DNA of 64,000 nt from Candidatus Palauibacter sp. (GCF_965216145.1 NZ_OZ244149.1:1100797-1164796), one strand, 5' to 3'. Shown: positions 788 to 16,037, counted from the stretch's first letter. A program made the numbers and translations. The notes: a model not told the origin generated them from the letters alone.

Positions 788-3646
788 TCAATGTGCGCCA
801 GGTGGTTTCGCCGCCACGCGCTTCTTCTCCTCCTCCAGCGCGTCCAGCGCGACCCCGTCCGTAATCCACGCCGGCGCCGGCTCGCCCTTCAGGTAGTGCC
901 CGAACCACTCCAGGATGCGCCGGTGGTAGTCCTTCTGGTTCGCCTCCTCTCGGAAACCGTGGTCCTCCCCTTCGTAGACCAGCAGCACCATCTGTTTCCC
1001 GGCGCGGCGGGCGAAGTTGAAGAACTCGGTCCCCTGGTCCCAGTCCACCACGCCATCCTCGTCGCCGAAGGCCATCAGCAGCGGCGTCTCCATGTTGTGC
1101 ACCTCGTGGATCGGCGAATTACGACGATGCGCCTCCGGATCCTCCCAGAACGGCACCTCCATGCGAGCCTGGCCGGTCTCCCAGTGGCTCAGCTCGGCGA
1201 TGCCCGGGTTCCAGTGCAGCGCGCCCATGAAGCTCACGAAGTCCGTGAGCGGCGCGCCCGCCACGGAAGCCGCGAAGATGTCGGTCCGCGTGGGCAGGAA
1301 CGTCGCCTGATAGCCGCCCCACGAGTGCCCGATGAGGCCGACCGCGTCCGGGTCCGTCACCCCCATCTCGACGGCCTTCGCCACGGCCGCGCGCACGGAC
1401 TCCAGCGCACTTACGCCCGGATCCCGCGCCCGGTATACGATGTCCGGCAGCAGCACCGCGTACCCATGCTGGGTCCAGGCCGTGTAGTTGTAGTACTCCC
1501 GCTCGCTGGGCACGCGGAAGAGGTGCATCTGCGGGGAGAGGATCTCGTAGGTGTACACGATCGTGGGGACCGCGCTGTCCTCCTCGTAGTTCGCGGGAAG
1601 AAGGAGGACGAACTGAAGGTCGCGGCCCGATTCGCTCACGAAGTCGACCAGCTCCGCCCGGCCCCACGCCACCTCGTCGATGAAGGGGTTGATCGCGGTC
1701 ACCCGGGCGGGGTTGGCGAGGTCGGGGCCGGCGACGAAGTAGTCCGGCGGGTCGTCGAAGCGTTCGTCGCGGTAGAAGAGCACGTCGGCGCTGTCGGCGC
1801 GGACGAGGCCACCCACGTAGCCGTCTTCCAGGACAAGGGTCTCGGCCGAGTCCCGGTCGCGCGCGTCGAGCCAGCCGCGGGTGAAGCGGGCATATCCGCG
1901 CTGCTCCGTCTTCTCGTTGTAGAGGGACAGATAGGGGCGCGAGTCGGGGTCGATGCCGGGCTCGTCGTCATCGGTGACGCGGGTCAACCGGTGGGTGATT
2001 CCCGTCTCGGCGCCGCGCGTCAGCCGCTCGCCTCCCGAGCCGTCGGGTGCGACGCGCCAGATGTCGTGCTTGTCGTAGAGCAGGACTGCGTTGTCGTCTT
2101 CCAGCCAGCCGCCGGGACCGGAGTCGCGTGGGGGGGTCACGTCGGTGGGCGTGTCGTAGTCCGTGTCGGCGAATTCGGCGGCCAGCGCTGACGTCAGGTC
2201 ATGCTGCTCGCCCGTGGCGACGTGGAGGCTGTGGTAGGCGGAGCCATCCCATGAGAGCAGCCAGTCGCCGCCCGCGCTTGGCCATTCGTAACGCACGCGA
2301 GCGAGGAGCTGGCGGCGCTCGCCGGTGTCCGCGTCAACGGCCCGGACATCGTGGTACGGACGGCCGAACATCGCGCCCCATGGGTAGGGCTCGTCAATGT
2401 CTTCCAGAGCGTACTCCCAGCCGTGCAGGAGTTGAGCGGTGCCCATGAGGTCGGATCCGAGAACGACCACGCGGTCGTCGTCGAGGTGCCAGACGGCCGG
2501 CAGCGATCGCGTGTTGTCGCGGTCCTCGGAGACCTGCTGCTCCGGGAAGAGGCGGACATCCCCGGTGTGCCAGATCTGCAGGGCGGGGAGGTCGGGTTCG
2601 GAGTCAGAGGCCGGAGCGTCCGGGGAGCCCTGATCCGGTTCCGTCTCCGCCTCCGGCTCCGGCTCGTCTTCCGCGCCGTCGCCGGGATCTTCGTCCTCTT
2701 CCTCTTCGATCGGCCTGAGCCCCAGAGAGATCATGATGCCATCGTCCGACCAGGCGGGGGCGCGGTGCCGGACGGTCTCGAGCGTGTCCGGGATGCCGGC
2801 GGTGTTCGCACCGAGGACCATCATCTCGACACGGCGGTCCAGGCCGCGCCAGGCCAGAACGTCGTAGGCGGTGCCGTCGGCGGAGGCGGCGCCGCTCGAG
2901 CGGAGGGCAGCCAGATCTGCAGAGTCATCACGCCAGCGGAGGCTCCGGTAGGCGGAACCGGAAGCGTCGGCGGAACGCAGGATACCGGCGGAGGCGTCGT
3001 ACACCTGCACGCCGTTGCCCACATCGGTGCCCGTCGCGATGGCGAGTGCAAGAAGGGATCCGGCCGGGCTCCAAGCCATCTCGCTCACGTTGCCGAAGGA
3101 GGTCTCCGTTCCCGTTTCCAGGGTGATGATGCGGAGATCGGCGCCCTTGCCCGAGGGCTCGTCCGGCGGGTAGCCACGCAGCGCCACGAAACGGCCGGAG
3201 GCGTCGAAGCGCTGTTCGGAGACCGCTTCGTACTCACGCGTCTCGCCGAATTGCAGATCCATCACCGAGGCCTTCTCACGGATCGGTTCGTCGCTCTCCT
3301 CGAGCCGCTCCCTTTCCTCCGGCGGTAGACCGATGGTCCAGGTCAGCCAACGGCCATCGGGGGAGAACCGCGGCGCCGAGCCCCATGGGAAGATCCGAAC
3401 GGAGTCCTCTTCGAGCTTCCGCACGCGGAGTTCCGACTTCTCGTCCACCCGGGTGACCACGTATGCGATCCACTCACCGAAGGGAGAGAACTCGAAGCCG
3501 CCGAGTCGCTCCCAGCGGCCGTAGTCGTCGGGAGTGACGAGGGGGCGGTCCTGGGAGTAGGCGGGGGACGGGAGGACGAGCGTGAGACCGCCAAGGGCAG
3601 CCAGTGTCGCGAGCGTCGGGAAACGGGAGGGGAGGGACCAGGTCAT
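788..3646 (-). CDS. secreted S9 family serine peptidase (TolB-like beta-propeller N-terminal, prolyl-oligopeptidase-type C-terminal)
   Basis: Signal peptide MTWSLPSRFPTLATLAALGGLTLVLP. C-terminal alpha/beta-hydrolase region with GLIGHSWGGYQ (GxSxGG nucleophile elbow). Acidic low-complexity insert EEEEDEDPGDGAEDEPEPEAETEPD. Confidence 0.8.
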   Translation of the reverse strand: MTWSLPSRFPTLATLAALGGLTLVLPSPAYSQDRPLVTPDDYGRWERLGGFEFSPFGEWIAYVVTRVDEKSELRVRKLEEDSVRIFPWGSAPRFSPDGRWLTWTIGLPPEERERLEESDEPIREKASVMDLQFGETREYEAVSEQRFDASGRFVALRGYPPDEPSGKGADLRIITLETGTETSFGNVSEMAWSPAGSLLALAIATGTDVGNGVQVYDASAGILRSADASGSAYRSLRWRDDSADLAALRSSGAASADGTAYDVLAWRGLDRRVEMMVLGANTAGIPDTLETVRHRAPAWSDDGIMISLGLRPIEEEEDEDPGDGAEDEPEPEAETEPDQGSPDAPASDSEPDLPALQIWHTGDVRLFPEQQVSEDRDNTRSLPAVWHLDDDRVVVLGSDLMGTAQLLHGWEYALEDIDEPYPWGAMFGRPYHDVRAVDADTGERRQLLARVRYEWPSAGGDWLLSWDGSAYHSLHVATGEQHDLTSALAAEFADTDYDTPTDVTPPRDSGPGGWLEDDNAVLLYDKHDIWRVAPDGSGGERLTRGAETGITHRLTRVTDDDEPGIDPDSRPYLSLYNEKTEQRGYARFTRGWLDARDRDSAETLVLEDGYVGGLVRADSADVLFYRDERFDDPPDYFVAGPDLANPARVTAINPFIDEVAWGRAELVDFVSESGRDLQFVLLLPANYEEDSAVPTIVYTYEILSPQMHLFRVPSEREYYNYTAWTQHGYAVLLPDIVYRARDPGVSALESVRAAVAKAVEMGVTDPDAVGLIGHSWGGYQATFLPTRTDIFAASVAGAPLTDFVSFMGALHWNPGIAELSHWETGQARMEVPFWEDPEAHRRNSPIHEVHNMETPLLMAFGDEDGVVDWDQGTEFFNFARRAGKQMVLLVYEGEDHGFREEANQKDYHRRILEWFGHYLKGEPAPAWITDGVALDALEEEKKRVAAKPPGAH

Positions 3647-3846
3647 CGGGCACTCTCCTGGGAGTCGCTGGAATTGGGGAAAGCAAGTTGCGTGGTGCTG
3701 GGGGACAATCGCCAGCGGGTGCCTCGGTTGGACCTCACGTGGGACGTGCGCCCCACTTGCCACGCGATCGGGTTCGGACGGGGCGTATGCGCAGGGGACG
3801 GTGCTTCACCGACTCCACCCGGGCACATGCCCCGCTTCCATTCCCG

Positions 3847-5265
3847 CTATTGCTGCAGGCGCAGCACGAAGAGGCCCTCGTTCCAGCTCGTGGCGACGAA
3901 GAAGCCGCTCTCGAAGTAGGGGTAGGTCGACCAGGAGCCGCGGAACTCCACGTTATTGTGTTCGGGCACGGTGTCAAAATAGCCCGCTTCCACGGGGTTC
4001 TCTCGGTCCGAGATGTCGATGATCCGGATGCCGAATGTGTAGTTGGAGTGGTAGATCACATCCTCGTGCACGTACAGGTTGTGGTCGATAGCTTCGGTGG
4101 GCCCCAGGTGCTCTCTCGCCAGAACCGGATCGTCGAGGTCGGTTAGATCCCAAACGAGCAGCCGCGTCCGCGAGACAGAGAACCCCTCATCGAGTTCATC
4201 GTTCTGATAGAAGTACTGGTGGTCCTCGCTGAGCCACCCCTGATGGATGTAGGCGTGATCGGCGTATGTACCGGTTGAGATGGTGATCGGGTTCTCCTTG
4301 TCGGTCACGTCCGACACTACAATGGCGGTCTCGTTCGAGCCGACGCAGATTTCCTGGCCCGCGTATTCCGAATCGGGGCCGCGATACACGACGCACTGAA
4401 CGTCGTGGGTGTAGCCTGGAATATAAAAACCCGTCGTCGTTTCAGCGTAGCAGCCCGCGAAAGTCGGATTCTTCGGGTCCGAGAGATCGATCATGTGCAG
4501 GCCGCTCCCGCATGTGTCGCCGCCACTGTTGCTACCGACGGCATAGGCGAAGCCGGTCTCTTCGTTGATCGCGATGTTGTGGACCGAACTCAGCCGCGAG
4601 TACCACGCATCGGGCTGCAACTCGGTGAACTCCGTCAACCCGCGCAGCCGTGTGAGGTCGAGAACCTGCATACCGTGGCCGGGGCTCAGGTCGGCGACGA
4701 CGTACACGTGATCCGCGTACACCTTCATGTCGCGCCACCACGAGGTACCCGTGTGCGAGGCGAGGTACGCGATCGGTCGCGGCTCGACCGGATTGGAGAG
4801 ATCGACAATGGAAAGTCCGTCGTGGCGGCCCACAAGAGCATACTCCACCCCGGTCTGAGGGTCGGTCCACCCCCAAATGTCGTTCACGTTCCACCACTCT
4901 TCCGGCCCCGAGGGCGGCGTCCCCGGTCTCAAGTCAGGCATGGATACCTGTCCCACGAGATCGACCCCCTCGCACGGAAAGCTGCCGGCCAGCCCATCGA
5001 CGCATATTGCCTCCGGGGCGACTGGAGGTGGCGGCGGTGGAGGTGGCGGCGGTGGAGGTGGCGGCGGTGGAGGTGGCGGCGGTGGAGGTGGCGGCGGTGG
5101 TGGTGGCGGCGGTGGAGGTGGCGGCGGCGGCTCGACGGGATCGGGGCCCGCGGGACCTGGGCCGGTCGGAGCCGGGGCGTCTTCACCGCATGCACCAAGG
5201 GCCACACTCAGCATGAGTACCGGAATCGCCGGTCGGATTCGCATAGAGGATGAATGGGCTCTCAT
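3847..5265 (-). CDS. choice-of-anchor B / LVIVD-repeat beta-propeller lipoprotein, paralog 1, with ~44-residue polyproline linker
   Basis: Lipoprotein-like leader MRAHSSSMRIRPAIPVLMLSVALGAC. SD GGGAGG 8 nt upstream of the ATG at 5263-5265. Conserved NDIWGWTDP, VYADHVYVVAD, YAVGSNSGG, HQGW motifs shared with the paralogs at 5425, 6933 and 31237. Confidence 0.75.
   Translation of the reverse strand: MRAHSSSMRIRPAIPVLMLSVALGACGEDAPAPTGPGPAGPDPVEPPPPPPPPPPPPPPPPPPPPPPPPPPPPPPPPPPPPVAPEAICVDGLAGSFPCEGVDLVGQVSMPDLRPGTPPSGPEEWWNVNDIWGWTDPQTGVEYALVGRHDGLSIVDLSNPVEPRPIAYLASHTGTSWWRDMKVYADHVYVVADLSPGHGMQVLDLTRLRGLTEFTELQPDAWYSRLSSVHNIAINEETGFAYAVGSNSGGDTCGSGLHMIDLSDPKNPTFAGCYAETTTGFYIPGYTHDVQCVVYRGPDSEYAGQEICVGSNETAIVVSDVTDKENPITISTGTYADHAYIHQGWLSEDHQYFYQNDELDEGFSVSRTRLLVWDLTDLDDPVLAREHLGPTEAIDHNLYVHEDVIYHSNYTFGIRIIDISDRENPVEAGYFDTVPEHNNVEFRGSWSTYPYFESGFFVATSWNEGLFVLRLQQ
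5024..5130. repeat. 15-bp tandem repeat (GGTGGAGGTGGCGGC)n, about 7 units, encoding poly-Pro on the minus strand
   Basis: Direct reading of the sequence. It is in-frame within the paralog-1 CDS. The plus-strand poly-Gly ORF here is an antisense artifact. Confidence 0.9.
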
Positions 5266-5424
5266 CTGACTATGCCTCCCGTCAACTGGAACGACGATCC
5301 GACGCACGAGTTGCTGCGGGTCGACGCGGTTTCGACGTAGATCTTGCGACCCAACCACCGTCGTACGTGCAACTTACACGTTTAGGCCTCTCCCTCGCGC
5401 CCCTAAACTGGAGGGGACTTGTCG
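5266..5424. repeat. ~160-bp intergenic cassette, copy A (near-identical to 6775..6932)
   Basis: Carries hairpins CCCCTAAACTGGAGGGG and ACGTGTAAGTTGCACGT. It lies downstream of paralog 2 and upstream (promoter/RBS side) of paralog 1. Confidence 0.85.
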
Positions 5425-6774
5425 CTATTGCTGCAGGCGCAGGACGAAGATGCCCTCACGCCAACTGGTGGCGACGAAGAGGCCGCTCTCGAACCAGGGG
5501 TAGATCGACCAGGAGCCGAATCCGCGAGGTTCGGGCACGGTGTCGAAGAACCCGCGTTCCAGGGGGTTCGCAGGATCCGCGATATCTATGACCCGGACTC
5601 CGAAGTCATAGTTGGAGTGGTAGATCAGGTCGCCGTGGACATACAGGTTGTGGTCGGTCTCGGTGCCCGGGCCCAGATGCTCCTTCGCCAGGATCGGGTC
5701 ATCGAGGTCGGTGAGGTCCCACACGAGCATGCGCGTGCGCGGTGTCAGCCCTTGAGCCTCGTCCCCTTCGTCGTTCTGGTAGAAATAGCCCTGGTCTGAG
5801 CTGAGCCAGCCCTGGTGGACGTAGCCATAGTCCGCGTACGTAGCGGTCGACAGGGTGATCGGATTCGTCTTGTCGGTCACGTCCGACACCACAATGGCGA
5901 TCTCGTTCGAGCCGACGCAGATCTCGCGGCCCGCATGTTCCGTATCAGGACCGCGATACACGACGCACTGGACATCGTGGGTGTAACCCGTACCGACCCA
6001 CCCGGTGCCTTCTACGGCGTGGCACCCCGCGAAACTCGGATTCTTCGGGTCCGTGAGGTCGATCATGTGCAGACCACCCCCGCACGTGTCGCCGCCGGAG
6101 TTGCTCCCGACGGCGTAGGCGAAGCCTGTCTCTTCGTTGATCGCGACGTTGTGGACCGCGCTCACGCGCGTGTACCGCCCGTCCGCCTGCATCTCCGTGA
6201 ACTCCGTCAGCCCGCGAAGTCGGGTAAGGTCGAGAATCTGCATGCCGTGGCCGGCTATGGCGTCGGCGACGACGTATACGTGGTCCGCGTACACTTTCAT
6301 GTCGCGCCAGATGCTCGAACCGGTATGGGAAGCGAGGTACGCGATCGGCCGGGGTTCGACGGGGTTCGAGAGATCGACGATCGAGAGTCCGTCATCGCGG
6401 CCGACGAGGGCGTACTCGACCCCCGTCTCCGGGTCGGTCCACCCCCAAATGTCGTTCAGGACAGAGGCCGGCCGCGCCGGTCTCAAGTCGCTCGGCGACA
6501 CGCGTGCCACCAGATCTACGCCATCGCACGGAAAGATGCCGGCAAGGCCACCGACACATGGTGTCTCTGTGGTGGGGAGCGGCGGTGGAGGCGGCGGTGG
6601 GGGAGGCGGCGGGGGCGGCGCGGGGGGAGGCGGCGGTGGCGCAAGCGTGGGCGGGGCGAGCGGATCCGGGGTCACCGGGCCCGCAGCGTCCTCTCCGCAT
6701 GCGCCGAGGACCACGCTCAGCATGAGTACCGGAATCGCCGGTCGGATTCGCATAGAGGATGAATGGGCTCTCAT
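5425..6774 (-). CDS. choice-of-anchor B / LVIVD-repeat lipoprotein, paralog 2 (Pro-rich linker)
   Basis: Same leader MRAHSSSMRIRPAIPVLMLSVVLGAC and the same motif set, roughly 75-80% identical to paralog 1. Linker is PPPPPPAPPPPPPPPPPPPPLP. Confidence 0.75.
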   Translation of the reverse strand: MRAHSSSMRIRPAIPVLMLSVVLGACGEDAAGPVTPDPLAPPTLAPPPPPPAPPPPPPPPPPPPPLPTTETPCVGGLAGIFPCDGVDLVARVSPSDLRPARPASVLNDIWGWTDPETGVEYALVGRDDGLSIVDLSNPVEPRPIAYLASHTGSSIWRDMKVYADHVYVVADAIAGHGMQILDLTRLRGLTEFTEMQADGRYTRVSAVHNVAINEETGFAYAVGSNSGGDTCGGGLHMIDLTDPKNPSFAGCHAVEGTGWVGTGYTHDVQCVVYRGPDTEHAGREICVGSNEIAIVVSDVTDKTNPITLSTATYADYGYVHQGWLSSDQGYFYQNDEGDEAQGLTPRTRMLVWDLTDLDDPILAKEHLGPGTETDHNLYVHGDLIYHSNYDFGVRVIDIADPANPLERGFFDTVPEPRGFGSWSIYPWFESGLFVATSWREGIFVLRLQQ

Positions 6775-6932
6775 CTGACCATGCCTCCCGTCAACTGGAA
6801 CGACGATCCGACGCAGGAGTTGCTGCGGATCGACGCGGTGTCGACGTAGATCTTGCGACCCAACCACCGTCGTACGTGCAACTTACACGTTTAGGCCTCT
6901 CCCTCGCGCCCCTAAACTGGAGGGGACTGTCG
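6775..6932. repeat. ~160-bp intergenic cassette, copy B
   Basis: Aligns almost base for base with 5266..5424 (a handful of substitutions). Confidence 0.85.
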
Positions 6933-8219
6933 CTATTGCTGGAGTCGCAGGACGAAGAGGCCCTCGTCCCGGCTGGTGGCGACGAAGAGGCCGCTCTCGA
7001 ACCAGGGGTAGGTCGACCAGGAGCCGCCGAACGTCTGGTCGTCATGGTCCGGTACCGTGTCGAAGAAGCCGCGCTCCACGGGATTCGCCGGATTCGAGAT
7101 GTCGAGGATCCGCACGCCGAACGTGTAGTTGGAGTGGTAGATCACATCCTCGTGGACGTAGATGTTGTGGTCGATGGCTCCGGTGGGGCCCAGGTGCTCC
7201 GTGACGAGGACCGGATCGTCCAGATCGACCATGTCCCATACCAGCATGCGCGTGCGTGAGACCCGGTTGTTTCTTTCATCCCCTTCATCGTTCTGGTAGA
7301 AATACCGGTGATCCTCGCTCAGCCATCCCTGATGGATGTAGTCGTGGTCGGCGTAGGAGGCGGTCGACAACGTCGTCGGGTTCGCCTTGTCGGTCACGTC
7401 CGACACGACGACCGCGGTCTCATTCGAGCCCACGCAGATCTCGCGGCCCGCGTGTTCCGCGTCGGGACCTCGATAGACGACGCACTGGACATCGTGGGTG
7501 TATCCAGTCCCATGCCAACCGGTGCCTGCCTCGGCGTGGCAACCCGCGAAGGTAGGGTTCTTCGGATCCGAGAGGTCGATCATGTGCAGGCCGCCCCCGC
7601 ACGTTTCGCCACCGGAGTTGCTTCCGACGGCGTACGCGAAGCCGGTCTCTTCGTTGATCGCGAGGTTGTGGACAGCGCTCACATTCCGGTATCTGGCGTC
7701 CGCGCTCAGTTCCGTGAACTCAGTCAACTCACGAAGCCGCGTGAGGTCGAGCACCTGGATCCCGTGCCCCGTAATCTCCGAGACGACGTACACGTGATCC
7801 GCATACACTTTCATGTCCCGCCAGAGGGTCTCCGAGAAGGCGGAGGGCATGAACGCGACCGGCCTCGGTTCGACCGGGTTGGAGAGATCGACGATCGAGA
7901 GGCCGTCGAAGTGCCCGACGAGGGCGTACTCCACCCCCGTCTGCGGATCGGTCCACCCCCAGATGTCGTTCAGGGAGGTGGCCATCCTTCCCGGCCGCAA
8001 CTCGCGCGGAAGCAGCCACCCCACCAGGTCCACGCCCTCGCACGGGAACCCGCGGGCCGTGCCGCCCTGGCAGGGGGCGAGCAGCGTGGCGACGGGTTCG
8101 GGCGGCGGCGGTTCCGGCGGATCGACCGGACCCGTCGCGCTTTCGCCGCACGCCACCGAGAGAAAAGCCAGCAGGAGAGTCGCGCCTCGCACCGAGGCGG
8201 GGATGCGCTTGGCAGTCAT
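6933..8219 (-). CDS. choice-of-anchor B / LVIVD-repeat lipoprotein, paralog 3 (short Pro linker)
   Basis: Leader MTAKRIPASVRGATLLLAFLSVACGES, then the conserved domain. The ORF-track N-terminal extension (to 8702) is Arg/Gly-rich junk that overlaps the upstream gene. Start taken at the ATG at 8217-8219. Confidence 0.7.
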   Translation of the reverse strand: MTAKRIPASVRGATLLLAFLSVACGESATGPVDPPEPPPPEPVATLLAPCQGGTARGFPCEGVDLVGWLLPRELRPGRMATSLNDIWGWTDPQTGVEYALVGHFDGLSIVDLSNPVEPRPVAFMPSAFSETLWRDMKVYADHVYVVSEITGHGIQVLDLTRLRELTEFTELSADARYRNVSAVHNLAINEETGFAYAVGSNSGGETCGGGLHMIDLSDPKNPTFAGCHAEAGTGWHGTGYTHDVQCVVYRGPDAEHAGREICVGSNETAVVVSDVTDKANPTTLSTASYADHDYIHQGWLSEDHRYFYQNDEGDERNNRVSRTRMLVWDMVDLDDPVLVTEHLGPTGAIDHNIYVHEDVIYHSNYTFGVRILDISNPANPVERGFFDTVPDHDDQTFGGSWSTYPWFESGLFVATSRDEGLFVLRLQQ

Positions 8220-8242
8220 CTGTTCGACATCCTCCCGTCCCC

Positions 8243-9397
8243 TCAATTCGTCAGCAGCAGCCGCGGCCCGAGGAGTCGGTGCGGGTCGGCGTCCGGCTTC
8301 GGGCTGAACTTGTTGATCCAGCCCCCGCTGTACGACGCGATGTACAGATTCCCATCCTCGTCCATGTCGAGTTGGTGCGGCAGCGACAGCCCGCCCGGCC
8401 AGGTACCGCGGCCGATCGCACCCGCCTGCCCGTAGGCGCCCCAGTAATCCTGGAGGACGCCATCCCGGTCGTACTTGAGCACGCGGTTCAGGCTCGCGTC
8501 CAGGACCCACACGGCGCCGTTCACATCCAGCCAGATGTTCACGGGATCGAAAATGTTCGGCCACTCCTCGATGAACTCCCCGTCGTGCGTGAACAGCTGA
8601 AGGCGCTCGTTCTGGCGGTCCGCGACGTAGACCCGGTCTTCGTCCACTGCGAGACCGTGCAGAAGATCGAACTCGCCGGGCCCTGTACCGAGCGCGCCCC
8701 ATTGCATGACGAACTCACCGTCCTCCGAGTACTTGACGATGCGCGAGTTCCAGTACCCGTCGGCGAGCAGGAAGCTCCCGTCCGGCAGGAACGCCAGCTT
8801 CGACGGCCACCCATAAGTATAAGGGTCCCAGTCGGATCGCGCGCGCGCGGCCTCTCGCGTCTTGGGATGGTCCCGCTCGCCCAGGCGCATGACGATCTCG
8901 CTGCCGTCGTTCGTGAACTTGACGACCTGCATGTGCCCCTGCCCGCCGCCGCTGTCGATCACCCACACGTGGCGGTCGGGGTCGTAGGGGCTGATGTACG
9001 CCTGGTGCGGCAGCGTGAAGATCGAGTCCCACTGCGCCCACTGTTCGACGATCTCGCCGTTCCCGTTCGCGACGACGACGAAGTTCGTCCGGCGGATCTG
9101 TCCGTTGCGGGGGGCCGAGCGGTCGGCGGGCCAGTCGCCGCGGGTGACGACGATGATGCGGTCCGCGTGGTCCACGGCCACTCCGGCCACCTGCCCCCAG
9201 CCCCACTCGTCGTCGTGATTGGGCGCGGGCTTCCACCAGCCCTCGACGGGGTCGTAGGCGCCGGTGCGGTCGTCGCCGCCCTTCACAGTCGTCGCGTTCG
9301 CCGGGTTCGCGGCCCGGCCTTCTTCGCCGCACGCCCAGGAGGCGGCCACGGCCGCCGCCCCGATCGCGACGAGGAGCGTCAGCGGGCGAGTCTTCAT
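8243..9397 (-). CDS. NHL-repeat (six-bladed beta-propeller) lipoprotein
   Basis: MKTRPLTLLVAIGAAAVAASWAC lipobox. Repeated blade motifs (VAVDxxDRIIVVTRG, VYVADRQNERLQLF, LYIASYSGGWINKF) typical of NHL / PAL-like propellers. Confidence 0.65.
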   Translation of the reverse strand: MKTRPLTLLVAIGAAAVAASWACGEEGRAANPANATTVKGGDDRTGAYDPVEGWWKPAPNHDDEWGWGQVAGVAVDHADRIIVVTRGDWPADRSAPRNGQIRRTNFVVVANGNGEIVEQWAQWDSIFTLPHQAYISPYDPDRHVWVIDSGGGQGHMQVVKFTNDGSEIVMRLGERDHPKTREAARARSDWDPYTYGWPSKLAFLPDGSFLLADGYWNSRIVKYSEDGEFVMQWGALGTGPGEFDLLHGLAVDEDRVYVADRQNERLQLFTHDGEFIEEWPNIFDPVNIWLDVNGAVWVLDASLNRVLKYDRDGVLQDYWGAYGQAGAIGRGTWPGGLSLPHQLDMDEDGNLYIASYSGGWINKFSPKPDADPHRLLGPRLLLTN

Positions 9398-11442
9398 TTA
9401 TCCCCCTTCGTCTGCTTCCTGTCCGTCTTCCCGGTTTCGGCCCCGTTTTCGGTCGTCACCCTCGCCGCGGGGGCCCATGGATCGTTGACGCCGGCGCCGG
9501 GGCAGGCGTCGCCCGTGTCGAGGAAGTGGGTGTGGAGGCACTCGAGCGTGGAGCCCAGTTCAGTGAGCAGTTCAACGGTCTCGGGGTAAGGCACGCGGGT
9601 GAAGAACCCGGCCCGACCGCCGCGCGCCATGTCCGCCGTGGACTGTCCGAGACGCGTGATGGCCGTGACATCCGCGCCTTGCGAGACCAGATATTCGATG
9701 AGTTCGTTGTCGCCGCGTGATGCCGCGTAGTGCATCGGCGTATAGAGCCAGGAATCGAGCCGATTCACGTCGGCGCCCAGTTCCTCGATCAGGTACTTCA
9801 CCGCCGGGATGAACTGATTGGGACGGCTGCGGACGCTGAACGCGCCGAGACCCAGATATCCCCCGCCCGCGGCGGCGTGCAGCGGCCAGGCGTTGGGTGC
9901 GCCCTCGGGGATCCCGGGCAGCGCCGAGTCCTCCTGCTGCCGGCCGTCCTGCTGCCGGCGCTCCCGCATCCCGACTTCCGGCCAGCGCGTGGGGATGTTC
10001 GGGTCCGCCCCGTGCGCGACGAGCAGCTTCATGGCCTCGAGGTCCTGCGCGAAGGCCGCGCGCCAGAACGGCGTCGCGCCGGTGAGGTCGATCCCCATCT
10101 TCGTGAGCCCGAACTCCCAGTACCACAGGTGCGTGTTCAGCCGGGGGTCGGGGTCCGCGCCGGCTTCGAGCAGGGCGCGCAGCACCTCCATGTGCCCGGC
10201 CTGCTGGCGGTCCTGAGCACGCGGCTGAGGGTAGTTGGACTTCGGGGCCCACTGCGTCTGCAGCGCGGCGAACAGGGGGGTGGCGCCGTCGGTCGAGGCG
10301 GCGAGATCCGGGTCGGCGCCGCGTTCGATGAGGACGAGCGAGAAATCGAACTGGCCGTTGAGCATCGCCATGAGGAGCGGGCTGGTCGCGTCCGCGCTCA
10401 CCTGGTCGATGTCCGCGCCGCCGTCGAGAAGCGCCGCGGCCGCCTCGATGTGCCCTTCCCGCGCGGCGTGCAGGAGCGCGGTCGTGCCGCCGGTCATGCC
10501 GACAAGGACTTCGCGGTACGGGGGGCGCACGACGTCGGGGCCGCCGGGGTAGTCGGGCCCGACGCGGGCGAGCGAGTGCGCGCCGACCTCGCCGACATCG
10601 AAGCCGGAACGGAGGAACTCGCGCTGCGCGTGGATGGCCGCCTGGACGTGCGCCGGGGCAGGCTCGCCCGGCCATTCGGCTTTGGAGTCCACCTCCGGTC
10701 CGTACGGTCCGAGCGTCTCGGCCGGCGCGCCGATCCAGTCCCGGAAGCGGCGGTTTGCTTCACGGTCGAGCGCCAGACTGGGCAGGACGTCGACCACGGC
10801 GGTCGCTATGCCGGGGTCGGCCCCGGCCTCGAGCAGCGCGGCCACGGCCGCCGCCCGGTTCGCCGCAGCGGCGAACATCAGGGGTGTCTGCCCCGCCGAC
10901 CCTTCGCGGGCGTTGGGGTCCGCGCCGTGGTCGAGCAGCGCGGTCACGGCCGCCGTGCCGTCCACGGCGCCCGCGGCGAGGTGCAACGCGGTCACGCCGC
11001 TGTTCGTCGTCGCGGCGTTCGGGTCGGCCCTCGCCTCGAGCAGGAGCGCGACGACGGCGCCGTGCCCCCCGCAGCCAGCCATATGGAGCGGCGTGTAGCG
11101 ACCGATGCGCGTCCCGGCATCCACCGCCGCGCCCGCGTCGATCAGCGCCCGGGCCGCCTCCGCATGGCCTCGCTCGGCGGCAAGATGCAGCGCGGTGATC
11201 CCGTCGCCCCGCGCCGCGTTCACGTCCGCGCCCTCCCCCACGAGCGCCCGCACGACCTCGACCTGCCCGTCCCGGGCGGCATCCAGCAGCCGATCGTCCC
11301 CACCCGACGATCCCGTCTGCGCCGCTGCCCCCACCGGGAGGAGCGCCAAAATCAGGAGCGCCGAAATCAGGAGCGTGCCCATGGCGGAGTTCGCTCCGGG
11401 CGCCATTCCGCCCTTCGCTCCGCGCCTCATGCCGCGCCTCAT
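9394..11442 (-). CDS. secreted ankyrin-repeat protein
   Basis: Multiple ANK units (GITALHLAAERGHAEAARALIDAGAAVD, GVTALHLAAG..., GQTPLMFAAAANRAAAVAALLEAGADP). N-terminal hydrophobic signal. 4-bp overlaps with both neighbours. Exact start (11442 or the internal ATG at 11382) is uncertain. Confidence 0.75.
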   Translation of the reverse strand: MRRGMRRGAKGGMAPGANSAMGTLLISALLILALLPVGAAAQTGSSGGDDRLLDAARDGQVEVVRALVGEGADVNAARGDGITALHLAAERGHAEAARALIDAGAAVDAGTRIGRYTPLHMAGCGGHGAVVALLLEARADPNAATTNSGVTALHLAAGAVDGTAAVTALLDHGADPNAREGSAGQTPLMFAAAANRAAAVAALLEAGADPGIATAVVDVLPSLALDREANRRFRDWIGAPAETLGPYGPEVDSKAEWPGEPAPAHVQAAIHAQREFLRSGFDVGEVGAHSLARVGPDYPGGPDVVRPPYREVLVGMTGGTTALLHAAREGHIEAAAALLDGGADIDQVSADATSPLLMAMLNGQFDFSLVLIERGADPDLAASTDGATPLFAALQTQWAPKSNYPQPRAQDRQQAGHMEVLRALLEAGADPDPRLNTHLWYWEFGLTKMGIDLTGATPFWRAAFAQDLEAMKLLVAHGADPNIPTRWPEVGMRERRQQDGRQQEDSALPGIPEGAPNAWPLHAAAGGGYLGLGAFSVRSRPNQFIPAVKYLIEELGADVNRLDSWLYTPMHYAASRGDNELIEYLVSQGADVTAITRLGQSTADMARGGRAGFFTRVPYPETVELLTELGSTLECLHTHFLDTGDACPGAGVNDPWAPAARVTTENGAETGKTDRKQTKGDK

Positions 11443-12866
11443 CGGGCGCCGCTCCCGCCGGGGGCCGCCCCGCCCGCGAAGTCGAGCGGCAAGGCACCGT
11501 CGCTGTCACCGAACGTGCTCAACTCCGGGTGTCCGATCTTCCGCATCAGGCTCACGAACGCGTTCGCCATCGGCGTCCCGTCGGGAGCCCGATGGTGCAC
11601 ACCCCCCTCCAGCGCGCCGTTCGCCCCGCCCAGGAAGAGGAGAGGCGCCCTCCGGTGGTTGTGGAGGTTCCCATCGGCCATCGGAGAGCCCCAGACGATC
11701 GCCGTCCTGTCGAGCAGCGACGCGTCGCCTTCCACGGTGCCGCCCAGCTTCTCGAGGAAGTAGGCGAGTTGGCCCAGCCGATAGGTGTTGATCCGGTTGA
11801 AGTCCATGATGTCCTCGGGGACGTTGCCGTGGTGCGAGGCCCCGTGGACGGACTTCGTCGTCCCGCTGTCGGGAAAAGCCCGGTTCGACTGATCGAACCC
11901 GGTCTTGAAGGTGATGACCCGCGTCAGATCGGTCTGCAGCGCGAGCAACTGCAGATCGAACATGAGCCGCATGTGTTCCTCGAAGGAGTCGGGGATCCCG
12001 GACGGCGCCTCCGGCATCTCCCGCTCCTCACCGCTCGCGTTGCGCGCCTCGACGAGCTGGATCCTGCGCTCGATCTCGCGGATATGGTCGATATACTCGT
12101 CCAGCGCGATCCGGTCCGCCGAGCCGAGCGCACTCCTGAGCCGCGCGACCTCGGTGGCGATCCAGTCGATCATGCTGCGGTCGGTGCGGCGGCGCGCCGC
12201 GCGATCCGCGGCGGTGTCGCCCGCCCCGAACAGCCGCTCGAAGACGACGCGCGGCTCCCGGATCGCCGGGAGCGGCAGGTCGGGCGAGGCCCACGCGAGC
12301 GAGGTCGTGTAGGCGCAGTGGTAGTTGTACGCGCAGCCGCCGCCCCGATCGATCCCCTCGATGCACAGTTCCAGCGACGGGAGCACCGTCTCCTGCCCGA
12401 AGCGTTGCGCGTGCAGCTGGTCGAGCGAAGTCCCGAGGTAGATGTCGGACCCCTGCGTCTGCTTCGGGTGCGCCTGGGTGAGGAACACCGCCGTCGAGCG
12501 GTCGTGGTCCCCGCCGATCTCCTCCGCGCGCGAGGCCTCGGCCGAGCGGCAGTCCGTGTTGCTGACGATCGTCATGTACCCGCGGAACGCCTCCAGCGGC
12601 TTGAGCTGGCTGTCCGCCACGAGTTCGAAGTCCCGGCCGGTCGTCCCCGGTGCGAACAGGTGCCGGGCGTCGCCCCAGTCGCTCGAGCCCGCCGCCCCCA
12701 TCGACTCCTCGACGCAGACCAGGCGCGTGAAGTTCGCGGCCTTCATCGGGTCGGCCCACAGCCGCCCTGCGGGAATCATCGCATCGAGAAGGGGCAGGGC
12801 CACGCTGGCGCCGGCGCCACGCAGGAAGGTGCGACGCGAGAGGTGTGTGCCGGTGACGAAGTTCAT
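11439..12866 (-). CDS. DUF1552 family protein with Tat signal
   Basis: N-terminus MNFVTGTHLSRRTFLRGAGASVALPLLDAMIP (twin-arginine motif). Family signature regions GGDHxRS, GGCAYxY, HHGN. It is the standard partner of DUF1592-family proteins. Confidence 0.7.
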   Translation of the reverse strand: MNFVTGTHLSRRTFLRGAGASVALPLLDAMIPAGRLWADPMKAANFTRLVCVEESMGAAGSSDWGDARHLFAPGTTGRDFELVADSQLKPLEAFRGYMTIVSNTDCRSAEASRAEEIGGDHDRSTAVFLTQAHPKQTQGSDIYLGTSLDQLHAQRFGQETVLPSLELCIEGIDRGGGCAYNYHCAYTTSLAWASPDLPLPAIREPRVVFERLFGAGDTAADRAARRRTDRSMIDWIATEVARLRSALGSADRIALDEYIDHIREIERRIQLVEARNASGEEREMPEAPSGIPDSFEEHMRLMFDLQLLALQTDLTRVITFKTGFDQSNRAFPDSGTTKSVHGASHHGNVPEDIMDFNRINTYRLGQLAYFLEKLGGTVEGDASLLDRTAIVWGSPMADGNLHNHRRAPLLFLGGANGALEGGVHHRAPDGTPMANAFVSLMRKIGHPELSTFGDSDGALPLDFAGGAAPGGSGAR

Positions 12867-15394
12867 GATCCAGCTCCTTCTGTCATTCTGCTCTCATTCT
12901 CTCGACTCTCACCCTCTCGACTCGCGCCCTCTCGGCTCGCGTCCCCCTGCTCGTCCACGACGGGCTGGGGGCGCACCATCCGGAACGCGTCGCTGTTCAC
13001 GACGCCGAAGATGAACGAGGACATCCGGTAGTCGTCCGCTTCCGCTTCCCGCGCGATCGCCCGGATCCCCGGTTCGTCGAAGTACTCCACGCGCCGCCCG
13101 ATCGCGTACGCCAAGAGGTGCGACGCGAAGTTCCGGACGAGCGGAATCGGCCGCTTCATCAGCACGTCGACAAGATCGGCCGGCGTGCTCACGTCCGTCC
13201 CGTCGTAGAAGGTGCCGCGCGTGTCGAGCGGGACGCCGTTCTCGCGGATCCGCACCTGTCCCGTCACGTCGTAGTTGTCGAGCGCGAGGCCGATCGGGTC
13301 CATGAAGCGGTGACAGGAGCGACACGTCGGATTCGCCCGGTGCATCTCCAGCCGTTCGCGGGTCGTGAGCAGCCGCCCACCTCGCGCCGATTCCGTGTCA
13401 TCGAAGGCGGGGATGTTGGGCGGCGGCGGCGGCGGCGGAGTACCCATGAGCACCTCCATCACCCACTTGCCTCGCAGCACCGGCGAGGTCCGCGCCGACA
13501 TGGACGTGAGGAGCAGCACGCTCCCGTGCCCCAGCACCCCGCGCCGGCTTTCGTCCGGGTAGGACACGCGCCGGAACCCGGGCCCCGAGACCCCCGGAAT
13601 CCCGTAGTGAGCCGCGAGCCGCTCGTTCAGGAAGGTGTAGTCCGCAGTGAACAGTTCCAGCAGGCTCCGATCCTCGCGCACGAGCCGGTCGAACAGGAGT
13701 TGCGTCTCCCGCACCAGATCTTCGCGCAGCTGCCCCGTGAAGTCCGGGTACAGGTAGGGCTCCGGCTGGTTGTCTTCCGCGTCCTGCAGCCGCAGCCACT
13801 GCGAGGCGAAGCGCGTCGACAGCGCCTCCGCGCGCGGGTCCGCCAGCATGCGGCGCACCTGAGCTTCGAGGACCGCGGGGTCCGAGAGCCGGCCGTCCGC
13901 GGCGAGGTCGAGCAGTTCATCGTCCGGGATCGTCGCCCAGAGGAAGAAGGAGAGCCGTGTCGCGAGATCGAGGTCCGAGATCGCGTAGCTCTCGTCGCCG
14001 GCCACACCCTCTGGAGCCCGCTCGAGGCGGAAGATGAACGACGGGCTGGCGAGAATCGCCTGCAGCGCCGTCCGGACCCCGACCTCGAAGCCTTCCTCCG
14101 CCGCAGCCCCGTCGTAGAACGACATCGGCCCGGCGATATCCTCCTCCGTGACCGGCCTCCGGTACGCCTCGCGCGCGAGGCGCGTGACGATCTCCGTCGC
14201 GCAGGCACGCGCCTCCCCGGAAGCCGCCGATGCGGGCCGGGCGGGACGGCAGCTGAAGAGCGTGCGGCGGCTCGCCGTCTCGGAGAGCCCCGCGGTGCGC
14301 CGCGGGCCCGTGATCATCAGCTCGCTCAAGTGCGGAAGCGCCGTGATCCCGTAGTTCGCCCACGACTGCGAGTCTTCCCCTCCCACGAACGACCAGCCCG
14401 GCGTCTTCAGGCGGTCCTCGTACGGCCCCTCGATCGTCCGCACGAACGCGGCCGCGATCTGCCGCTGGCCCGCCCGCACGAAGATCGGCTCGGTCCGGAT
14501 CGGGTAGGTCGAGCGGCTTCCGTGCTCGAGGCCGAGCAGCGCGACTCCCTCGCCGTCGATCGAGATGTCGACATCCTGGAAGCCGGTCCCCTGGCCGAAG
14601 AGCGTCTCGATCGTGAACACGTACTCCCCGTCGACCGGGAAGTCGTGCGTCACGACGATCCCTCCGCGGGTCCCGTACGGCGTGCCCTCGAGATGATCCC
14701 AGGCGTGCTGCGAGACTTCGATCGGGTTCGTGTATTTCGCCGAACGCGACAGGGCGTCGGGGTTGCCGACCGCGAGCCGGCTCACCTCGGTGGCAGCCCG
14801 CAGGTACGCTTCGAGCAGCGTAGTCGAGAGGCCCTGCGCGTCGGACATGTTGTCGAAGGCGCCCAGATACGTGTCCGCCGGGAGCCAGCGGCCGGCGTCG
14901 ATCTCGAGGTCGAGGAGGTCGCGGATGACGCGCTCGTACTCGGCCCGGTTCAAGCGCTGGAAGCGCCGCGCGCCGGGGTTCGGATCGTGTGCGGCCGCGC
15001 GGTCTACCACCGTCTCCAGCGTCTCGACGAGCGCCAGAAGCGTGTCCGGAGACGGTCGACGCTGGCCCGGCGGCGGCATCATCCCCGCACGCAGCTTGCG
15101 GATCATCTTTTCGGCGGTGGGCGCTCGCTCGTGCGCCGCGTCCACATCGAACGTCTCCAGCGTGAGGTTTCCCCGCAGCAGGCGCTCGTTGTGACAGCGC
15201 ACGCAGTACCGCTGGACAACATCGGTGAGGTCGGCGAAGGCGGGGGTCGGCGTCGGCGGGGTGGCGTCGACGTGTCCGGTCACGATCTGCGGCGGTCGCG
15301 CGACGGGCGCGACATCGGGCGCACGGCTCTCCGACGGCCCGCCCGCAACGGCAAGCCAGAACCACAGGATCGCGCCCACACTCAATGACTTCAT
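12863..15394 (-). CDS. DUF1592/DUF1587/DUF1595/DUF1588/DUF1585 multidomain protein with cytochrome-c-like CxxCH motif (PSCyt-type)
   Basis: Signal MKSLSVGAILWFWLAVAG. CVRCHN heme-binding-like motif followed by RKLRAGMMPP. Paired with DUF1552 as in Planctomycetes, Verrucomicrobia and Gemmatimonadota genomes. Start taken at the internal ATG (15392-15394) rather than the track's 15442. Confidence 0.7.
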   Translation of the reverse strand: MKSLSVGAILWFWLAVAGGPSESRAPDVAPVARPPQIVTGHVDATPPTPTPAFADLTDVVQRYCVRCHNERLLRGNLTLETFDVDAAHERAPTAEKMIRKLRAGMMPPPGQRRPSPDTLLALVETLETVVDRAAAHDPNPGARRFQRLNRAEYERVIRDLLDLEIDAGRWLPADTYLGAFDNMSDAQGLSTTLLEAYLRAATEVSRLAVGNPDALSRSAKYTNPIEVSQHAWDHLEGTPYGTRGGIVVTHDFPVDGEYVFTIETLFGQGTGFQDVDISIDGEGVALLGLEHGSRSTYPIRTEPIFVRAGQRQIAAAFVRTIEGPYEDRLKTPGWSFVGGEDSQSWANYGITALPHLSELMITGPRRTAGLSETASRRTLFSCRPARPASAASGEARACATEIVTRLAREAYRRPVTEEDIAGPMSFYDGAAAEEGFEVGVRTALQAILASPSFIFRLERAPEGVAGDESYAISDLDLATRLSFFLWATIPDDELLDLAADGRLSDPAVLEAQVRRMLADPRAEALSTRFASQWLRLQDAEDNQPEPYLYPDFTGQLREDLVRETQLLFDRLVREDRSLLELFTADYTFLNERLAAHYGIPGVSGPGFRRVSYPDESRRGVLGHGSVLLLTSMSARTSPVLRGKWVMEVLMGTPPPPPPPNIPAFDDTESARGGRLLTTRERLEMHRANPTCRSCHRFMDPIGLALDNYDVTGQVRIRENGVPLDTRGTFYDGTDVSTPADLVDVLMKRPIPLVRNFASHLLAYAIGRRVEYFDEPGIRAIAREAEADDYRMSSFIFGVVNSDAFRMVRPQPVVDEQGDASREGASREGESRENESRMTEGAGS

Positions 15395-16037
15395 GCGCCG
15401 CCCTTCGAGAAGCCGGGGTGCGCCGGAATGCGCTTCAGCCAATTAACTTAGGAAAAAGAACATCCCGCCGGGAGGGGCTTCGTGGCCAGCAGGCTCGGTC
15501 AACTGGCTTGCCGCGAGCGCCCCTCCACCCGGTAGTCGCTGAGCCGGCACGAGTGCCTCTGCGGCATCGCGATGCGTGTGCTGGAGCCGCTCCACCCGAC
15601 AACCCGAGGGAGCGAGACCGGAGGCTGCCTGGGGGTTGTTGCTGGTCCCTGCGAAGCCTTATGCCAATTCAAAATGAGACTTTCAATTGGCATAGGCCGA
15701 CACAGGGGCACCGACACTCCCATGATTGCTCGAGATCTCGCGCCGGTGAACAGTCATCCTGAGATCCAGAGCTAGCGCCTCCACTGTTCCGGCGCGGGGA
15801 TGCCGCGAGAGATCAGGATCTCGAGGTCCGCCGCGTCCCGCAGCACCGATGCGATGGCGCCGGGGTCGGCCGCGACGCCTGCGAGGGTTCCGAGATGACC
15901 CCCTCCGGGCGCGGAGAGTTCAATCGCCTTCAGCCTGGCCGCCCATGCGGATGACACCGGGAGCGTGAAGGCGAATCCCGATCCTCCGTCGCCGTCCGCC
16001 ACCTCCTGCATGGGAGCCACCTCGGTCTCGACATGGG

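Follow-up and report, generated by a model that had tools for sequence, protein, structure and literature searches.

The subject of this report is a tandem array of three lipoprotein genes, here termed A, B and C, together with the two spacers between them, in a 64-kb stretch of DNA from Candidatus Palauibacter (Gemmatimonadota, marine) that we refer to as the window; all coordinates count from its first letter. The genes are head-to-tail open reading frames (ORFs) on the minus strand that encode paralogous beta-propeller proteins of the choice-of-anchor-B / LVIVD family, and the two spacers are nearly identical to one another. A preliminary description of the stretch took this near-identity for a conserved regulatory cassette that had been duplicated along with each gene. 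We arrive at a different conclusion: A, B and C are old paralogs under purifying selection, orthologous spacers diverge at about the neutral rate, and the near-identity of the two spacer copies points to recent gene conversion and contradicts long-term constraint. The account that we favour as a whole, at a probability of roughly 0.72, joins these old paralogs to an offset duplication that would have carried along a relic of the neighbouring NHL gene, a later conversion of ~230 nucleotides (nt), and the gain and loss of copies.

Gene A: 3847-5265, minus strand; ORF of 472 amino acids (aa); leader as in B, 61-residue linker with 36 consecutive Pro, propeller.
Gene B: 5425-6774, minus strand; ORF of 449 aa; leader MRAHSSSMRIRPAIPVLMLSVVLGAC common to A, 46-residue linker (13-Pro run), propeller.
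Gene C: 6933-8219, minus strand; ORF of 428 aa; lipoprotein signal (…LSVAC), 25-residue Pro-rich linker, choice-of-anchor-B / LVIVD seven-bladed beta-propeller.
Spacer B-A: 5266-5424, minus strand; 159 nt; putative NHL 3'-end relic (5299-5383) and ribosome-binding site (RBS) GGGAGG (5275-5280).
Spacer C-B: 6775-6932, minus strand; 158 nt; ~40 nt of probable old 3' flank, putative NHL 3'-end relic (~6808-6892, placed by register with the other spacer copy) and RBS GGGAGG (6784-6789).
Conversion tract, A side: 5207-5433, minus strand; last 9 nt of B, whole spacer, first 59 nt of A.
Conversion tract, B side: 6716-6941, minus strand; last 9 nt of C, whole spacer, first 59 nt of B.
NHL-repeat beta-propeller lipoprotein gene: 8243-9397, minus strand; directly upstream of C, assigned by profile matches.

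A conversion tract across spacer and leader

The two spacers are identical at 154 of 158 positions with one 1-nt indel, as the preliminary description had it, and a 35-nt core within them occurs exactly twice in the window where 0 occurrences are expected by chance. The likeness does not end at the gene boundaries. When the end of B, the spacer and the start of A were aligned with the end of C, the spacer and the start of B, the best-scoring segment (5433-5207 against 6941-6716) spanned 227 columns with 222 matches, the other 1096 columns being 72.6% identical; its log-likelihood ratio is 43.8, while the highest value among 2000 permutations was 12.2. The repeat includes stretches of 88 and 64 nt without any mismatch. 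The 59 nt of coding leader that it includes, reaching into codon 20, contain zero differences, synonymous sites included; past the tract, identity decays towards the end of the leader (six synonymous differences in the 38 columns of the leader alignment) and then into the linker.

Two related genomes date the event. L165 comes from the same species as the window, with which it shares 96.8% identity over 6.5 kb (window 6605 to 125), and its locus consists of B (97.6% over the domain), the spacer, A (99% where aligned) and the S9-family peptidase gene that follows the array; L160 belongs to a sister species and carries an orthologous spacer of 147 nt. The two spacers of the window match each other at 154 of 158 positions with 1 gap column, and match the L165 ortholog at 151 of 158 (the copy upstream of A) and 149 of 158, with 4-5 gap columns in addition. 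Orthologous spacers diverge at about the neutral rate: the copy upstream of A is 95.6% identical to that of L165 with 5 gap columns, next to a synonymous divergence (dS) of 0.040 in the adjacent gene A, and identity of the window spacers to the L160 spacer falls to 81-83% with 15-16 gap columns. At 15 sites both window copies agree with one another against L165. At five of the 15, L160 sides with L165, and the state shared by the window copies is therefore the derived one; ATGAGAGCC, for example, stands in both copies where the relatives have ATGAAATCC or ATGAAATTC. Had neither copy been a source for the other, each of these five changes must have arisen twice. The spacer changes at about the neutral rate between genomes, and yet the two copies are closer to each other than to the ortholog of a ~97%-identical strain; the pattern is the signature of a gene conversion that would have followed the split of the two strains.

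Regulatory signals and the spacer as a cassette

One alternative sees in the spacer a functional regulatory cassette, with promoter, 5' untranslated region (UTR) and terminator, that is held constant by purifying selection and makes each gene its own transcription unit. GGGAGG does sit 9 nt upstream of each ATG, at the correct distance, and here the preliminary description, which placed the RBS of the next gene in the spacer, stands. The spacer's 3' ~70 nt are ~91% conserved against L160 (counted by eye), above the 5' part; a small CCCC/GGGG hairpin behind the stop codon is kept in L165 and L160; and a gap of 158 nt is long for a tightly coupled operon. Against the cassette speak the divergence of orthologous spacers at roughly the synonymous rate, with indels of 12-16 nt in the sister species, and the absence of the spacer from the arrays of other species, in which the copies either follow each other at 4 nt or overlap (L004, L005), or have unrelated spacers between them. 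The identity tract moreover disregards the border between spacer and coding sequence, and the searches of the spacers found no promoter- or terminator-like site, no Rfam match and no excess of structure. A cassette under long-term constraint is, on balance, unlikely.

The GC-rich hairpins and candidate terminator of the preliminary description fared poorly. The scan for intrinsic terminators (a GC-rich stem-loop followed by a run of T) found no site in either spacer; the hairpin behind the stop codon has 5 bp and no T tail and is no more stable than shuffled sequence (z +0.8 to +0.9), and the folding of whole spacers is likewise no better than that of shuffles (z -0.64 and +0.11). The corresponding hairpin of L160, at z -2.2, is the lone exception among the folds tried. 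No Rfam family (riboswitch, leader or small RNA) matched at E<=1 on either strand of 3000-10000. A scan of both strands of 3500-9600 for sigma-70-type promoters (-35/-10 elements at 16-18 nt spacing) returned 0 sites, which is weak evidence because the promoter types of Gemmatimonadota are uncharacterised and other types lay outside the scan.

Three ORFs across the spacers were considered and, on inspection, rejected as genes: a forward extension through the spacer (MVGSQDLRR...), which has no RBS, and antisense ORFs at 5250-5591 and 6759-7259, in whose frame all four substitutions between the copies are non-synonymous.

Origin of the spacer

If the spacer is not a dedicated module, a source for it has to be sought elsewhere, and the adjoining NHL gene offers one. 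A profile of six NHL 3' ends, comprising the final ~260 nt of each gene and ~50 nt downstream, was run against both strands of the whole window; its best non-self match is the spacer at 5383-5299 (E=5.7e-5). The same profile matches the spacers of L160 (E=1.5e-4) and L165 (E=6.9e-4), and all three matches are collinear and on the same strand. A 12-sequence NHL profile gave E=1.5e-4 for the window spacer and E=2.5e-4 for that of L160; the L160 spacer aligns with the NHL tail from the ...DGNLYIASYSGGW... codons as far as the stop region. In the reciprocal direction, a profile of the two window spacers searched against 159 related loci found NHL 3' ends as its best matches (L001, E=0.0037; L002, E=0.028). 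By inspection, the ~25 nt that close the spacer (TTGACGGGAGGCAT.GTCAGATG) resemble the stretch from NHL stop to next start in front of C and of the first array gene of L001. From these marginal but reciprocal matches, the spacer core is quite probably the decayed remnant of a copied NHL gene end (~110 nt), followed by its native RBS. Should that origin be right, the supposed cassette is a pseudo-fragment and not a dedicated regulatory module.

A side observation concerns the unrelated 220-nt spacers that precede a third type of array gene in two relatives (L160 10955-11045; L161 9452-9542): their 3' parts give faint matches to the NHL profile (E 0.05-0.2), and they may be older relics of the same kind.

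Copy number and mosaic structure among relatives

We compared copy number at the syntenic position, NHL-[gene]n-S9 peptidase, in 13 Palauibacter assemblies, and found one to three array copies:

One copy: L001, L002, L003 and L163.
Two copies, with 4 nt between them or a 4-nt overlap: L004 and L005.
Two copies with an unrelated 220-253-nt spacer between them: L080 and L161.
Three copies: L160, L162 and L164, the middle copy of L164 being truncated.

Wherever a related locus keeps the NHL side of the array, its NHL ortholog is 85-97% identical. The spacer itself had no blastn homologs in the first 159 related loci, among which only the leader was matched (L001), and was found in closer relatives. 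The L160 locus contains C (95% identical over 428 aa, 97% in the domain), the orthologous spacer, a second copy with an A/B-type leader, and a third copy of a type absent from the window.

The comparison of the window with L160 is mosaic. Identity is 97-100% across gene C in most 75-nt bins, and dS is 0.076 in C, 0.20 in the adjacent NHL gene and 0.65 between the second-position genes. Identity falls abruptly to ~80% at the C stop codon (window 6930-6990; L160 about 9240-9300), a breakpoint that suggests a recent import by recombination. In L165, an rve-family transposase gene at 4354-5426, belonging to an insertion sequence (IS) element, ends in the Pro-rich linker of the B ortholog, and the element removes the B leader and the entire NHL/C side of the array. 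In L161 (10919-13453) the S9 peptidase is cut to 276 aa, with a phage-integrase-family gene behind it; the array's downstream end is a rearrangement point as well.

These features could be read as a programmed variable locus in which gene ends, spacer and leader serve as homology anchors for the exchange of propeller bodies as cassettes. The high identity across C with its abrupt fall downstream of the stop codon, the dS of the second-position genes (0.65, against 0.08-0.20 in the flanks) and the IS element in a Pro linker would all sit well with such a design. Ordinary homologous recombination between strains, however, produces the same mosaic, neither a recombinase nor specific sites accompany the locus in the window, and the genomes compared are only a handful. 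We therefore hold programmed exchange to be improbable; the differences in gene content among close relatives are explained by ordinary recombination between strains together with gene gain and loss.

Age of the paralogs and selection

Over the propeller domain, dS and the ratio of non-synonymous to synonymous divergence (dN/dS), both by the Nei-Gojobori method (NG86), are as follows:

A-B: dS 0.74, dN/dS 0.21.
B-C: dS 0.76, dN/dS 0.20.
A-C: dS 0.92, dN/dS 0.17.

Only 86 of 143 fourfold-degenerate sites (60%) are identical between A and B, and informative sites describe a near-star (AB 107, BC 107, AC 91). The NHL gene differs from its orthologs in other Palauibacter species by a dS of 0.48-0.74; the divergence among A, B and C is at or above this, which makes the splits between them no younger than those species. 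In neighbour-joining trees with bootstrap, C clusters with genes that hold the first position in other genomes (83%; 98-100% with those of L160 and L161), and A with the first gene of L001 and the second of L160 (68-76%).

The ratio dN/dS lies at 0.17-0.23 between paralogs and 0.10-0.43 between orthologs, values that argue against antigenic diversification of the propeller domain. Of the hallmarks of phase or antigenic variation, neither an elevated dN/dS nor a frame-shifting switch repeat was found, and an alignment of 53 homologs retains 82 invariant columns, six His and six Cys among them; these figures do not support the suggestion that the proteins are antigenic variants. Nor is it at all probable that A and B are very recent duplicates whose bodies diverged fast under diversifying selection, in the manner of antigenic variation. 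Copy content does differ among close relatives and linker length is polymorphic between conspecifics, but selection on protein cannot yield the synonymous divergence seen between the A and B bodies, A and B each have their own ortholog in L165 at 96-98% identity, and the invariant columns speak of constraint. To speak of a locally expanding family is misleading. The family is locally variable, with 1, 2 or 3 copies at the locus, but the paralogs themselves are old (dS 0.74-0.92), and a fourth family member elsewhere in the window is a conserved ortholog.

A test for mosaicism in the gene bodies returned a single significant cluster: within nt 875-972 of the domain alignment, A and C share a state that B lacks at 21 of the 28 informative sites (permutation p<0.0005). 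An old conversion patch between A and C would account for it, and so, equally well, would a burst of change specific to B.

That the array is an assembly artefact, strain variants having been chained through the shared ~230-nt repeat, is barely credible: perfect stretches of 88 and 64 nt might mislead an assembler working from short reads, but the two spacer junctions differ at their edges, independent assemblies reproduce both of them (B-spacer-A-S9 in L165; C-spacer-copy 2 on a 1.3-Mb contig in L160), and six other assemblies have arrays of 2-3 copies as well.

A stepwise account and what weighs against it

The history that we favour would begin with an offset tandem duplication, its unit reaching from a point ~110 nt before the end of the upstream NHL gene to ~40 nt past the propeller stop codon. 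Such a unit would have carried the native RBS and the propeller gene, and the piece left between the genes would be mostly a decaying NHL pseudo-fragment. The unit, spacer included, would then have been duplicated again, giving rise to the B and A lineages. Much later, after the split from the ~97%-identical conspecific, a ~230-nt conversion would have overwritten one copy of spacer plus leader. Across Palauibacter the array would go on gaining and losing copies (1-3), and the Pro linkers would change length through slippage in short repeats. In this account the earlier idea that gene and regulatory cassette were duplicated as a unit keeps its first half, a gene with its upstream DNA and RBS, and loses the second, for the spacer, probably an NHL relic, evolves at about the neutral rate and is not a conserved regulatory cassette.

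Several points weigh against this account. Either copy may have been the donor in the conversion, as L165 lacks the region upstream of B. The scores for homology of the spacer to the NHL tail are weak (15-17 bits); nhmmer reported no match in the second window copy even with filters relaxed, and the larger NHL profile gave none in the L165 spacer. The NG86 dS values of 0.7-0.9 lie close to saturation in a genome of 68% GC, the trees are neighbour-joining only, and some of their key nodes have bootstrap values of 41-58%. The promoter scan has the limits given above, and the better conserved 3' 70 nt of the spacer may act as 5' UTR or RBS context. Finally, conversion alone leaves the invariance of one stretch of the leader unexplained. 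This stretch of 38 nt in the A/B-type leader (ATGCGAATCCGACCGGCGATTCCGGTACTCATGCTGAG; coordinates estimated at 5216-5253 and 6725-6762) is the same in four sequences, those of A and B in the window and those of L160 and L165, with gene bodies ~20% apart; a hairpin within the leader (ACCGG...CCGGT) is no more stable than shuffles.

Family membership

A, B and C belong to an already annotated lipoprotein family and form an ordinary tandem triplet. They score 437, 403 and 438 bits against TIGR04312 (a model of 364 positions, cutoff 100), and 35.7, 31.6 and 41.1 bits against Pfam LVIVD PF08309 (gathering threshold 20.2). Their propeller domains share 75-77% protein and ~78% DNA identity, in keeping with the three LVIVD / choice-of-anchor-B paralogs of 75-80% identity recognised beforehand. 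The window holds exactly four members of the family (tblastn, 64 kb), the fourth outside the array and distant from it:

Fourth family member: 31237-33588, plus strand; FG-GAP_2 repeats, then a choice_anch_B domain.

Its fusion to FG-GAP had been correctly noted. It scores 427 bits against TIGR04312, and in all four proteins the match extends from model position 1-2 to 363-364; its orthologs in L046 and L049, which are of two other species, are 84-86% identical. The database proteins nearest to the array genes are named choice-of-anchor B and come from Candidatus Palauibacter. No function is reported for the family, whose name is absent from the literature searched.

Leaders and linkers

Pattern inspection places a lipobox at residues 23-26, with L-G-A-C ending the leaders of A and B and S-V-A-C that of C, in each case behind a basic n-region and a hydrophobic core; Cys occupies the equivalent position in all 24 related copies. 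A nearly identical leader had been attributed to all three genes, which is true of A and B only: the leader of C is MTAKRIPASVRGATLLLAFLSVAC, unlike that of A and B, and the region upstream of C also differs. The claim that the genes differ in their Pro-rich linkers is borne out. From the lipobox Cys to the first Cys of the domain there are 61 (A), 46 (B) and 25 (C) residues, of which 43, 26 and 9 are Pro, with longest Pro runs of 36, 13 and 4. Most of the run in A is encoded by a short tandem repeat:

Tandem repeat: 5023-5127, minus strand; 15-nt unit, 7 copies, 97% matches.

The 15-nt period keeps the reading frame. The run counts 36 Pro in the window and 22 in the ortholog of the conspecific L165 (about 6900-6970), a difference that fits slippage of the repeat, with assembly error in low-complexity DNA as the alternative; both linker length and copy number, which the preliminary description proposed to compare, thus vary among relatives. 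A long Pro run should stall ribosomes in the absence of elongation factor P (EF-P).

Structure and possible role

The invariant columns of the 53-homolog alignment include C50, C60, C207, C227, C246 and C262 and H152, H184, H212, H242, H296 and H351, besides Asp and Glu residues. An AlphaFold2 model of C (mean predicted local distance difference test, pLDDT, 89; predicted template-modelling score, pTM, 0.85) is an all-beta propeller with a disordered leader and linker, in which the invariant His lie at or just before the starts of strands in successive blades. The best match among solved structures is the phosphotriesterase Sb-PTE (5HRM), found by sequence at E=0.0015 and by Foldseek at E=2.5e-13 (TM 0.60, 15% identity); the remaining fold matches are all generic WD40 propellers. 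In the model, this arrangement fits a putative metal or ligand site at the hub of a disulfide-stabilised, extracytoplasmic propeller, which we offer as a lead and not as a result.

A bolder scheme may be sketched, though we think it doubtful. Rigid poly-Pro stalks, 25, 46 and 61 residues long, would hold the same hub-site propeller at graded distances from the membrane; slippage of the 15-nt repeat would tune stalk length quickly; bodies would be swapped between strains behind a common leader; and the adjoining S9 (prolyl-oligopeptidase-family) peptidase would possibly act on the stalks. The series of linker lengths beside a prolyl-oligopeptidase-family enzyme, together with the possible metal site at the hub, are the only threads here that might lead somewhere new.

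Neighbourhood and transcription

The cluster reads DUF1592-family, DUF1552, ankyrin, NHL, [propeller]n and S9 peptidase. Its downstream boundary is conserved:

S9-family peptidase: 788-3646, minus strand; 200 nt downstream of A.

On the other side, 8243-15442 on the minus strand is an operon-like run with 4-nt overlaps that is conserved upstream of the array in L160-L164. Its genes encode a DUF1585/1587/1588/1592/1595 protein, a DUF1552 (HXXSHH) protein with a twin-arginine-like leader, a 682-aa ankyrin-repeat protein and the NHL lipoprotein, whose gene lies directly upstream as previously described, C beginning 23 nt past its stop codon. The preliminary description made each array gene a probable independent transcription unit, a view that finds no support here: the scan returned no promoter- or terminator-like sites in the spacers, and the upstream genes overlap by 4 nt, as they do in operons. 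As judged from the sequence, co-transcription of the array would be the simpler reading because of these two observations, the 23-nt gap between NHL and C, and the abutting or overlapping paralogs of L004 and L005. Downstream of the S9 peptidase gene, at 70-908 on the minus strand (L160 14922-15607), lies a pair of small genes, the second encoding a PIN-domain protein, that is kept in L160, L163 and L164 and looks like a toxin-antitoxin pair.

Significance and comparison with known systems

A near-perfect non-coding repeat between tandem paralogs can mimic a conserved regulatory cassette; that the repeat is neutral here and owes its identity to recent conversion is evident because a conspecific and a sister genome were compared. 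Palauibacterales are an uncultured, widespread marine group, in which the locus is a variable array of envelope proteins and a possible strain marker. The array also gives a starting point for work on what the choice-of-anchor-B proteins do, their invariant His/Cys pattern hinting at a metal centre. As a whole, the locus is a case of ordinary birth-and-death and concerted evolution and does not overturn existing ideas.

The proteins compare with known systems as follows. A, B and C match TIGR04312 over its full length and, like the TIGR04312 / PF08309 family, are predicted to fold as seven-bladed beta-propellers. The family takes its name from C-terminal sorting signals; the anchor of A, B and C differs in being an N-terminal lipobox with a poly-Pro stalk. 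Sb-PTE, the binuclear-Mn phosphotriesterase of Sphingobium sp. TCM1, is likewise a seven-bladed propeller, but the identity is only 15%, and the likeness to C is one of fold, together with the presence of invariant His, Asp and Glu in the family. TonB and similar envelope proteins carry rigid Pro-rich spacers and, as here, a Pro-rich segment separates membrane anchor and globular domain; the unbroken 36-Pro run of A is far longer, is encoded by the 15-nt repeat and varies in length between conspecifics.

For the evolution of the array, the apt precedents are bacterial paralogs in concerted evolution by gene conversion, namely tufA/tufB and tandem families of surface proteins. The array shares with them a sharply bounded tract of near-identity between diverged paralogs, derived sites common to both copies, and paralogous copies that are closer to each other than to the orthologous copies of a sister strain. 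It differs in what has been homogenised: the tract consists mainly of non-coding DNA, probably a pseudo-fragment, together with a signal peptide, and not of the gene body.

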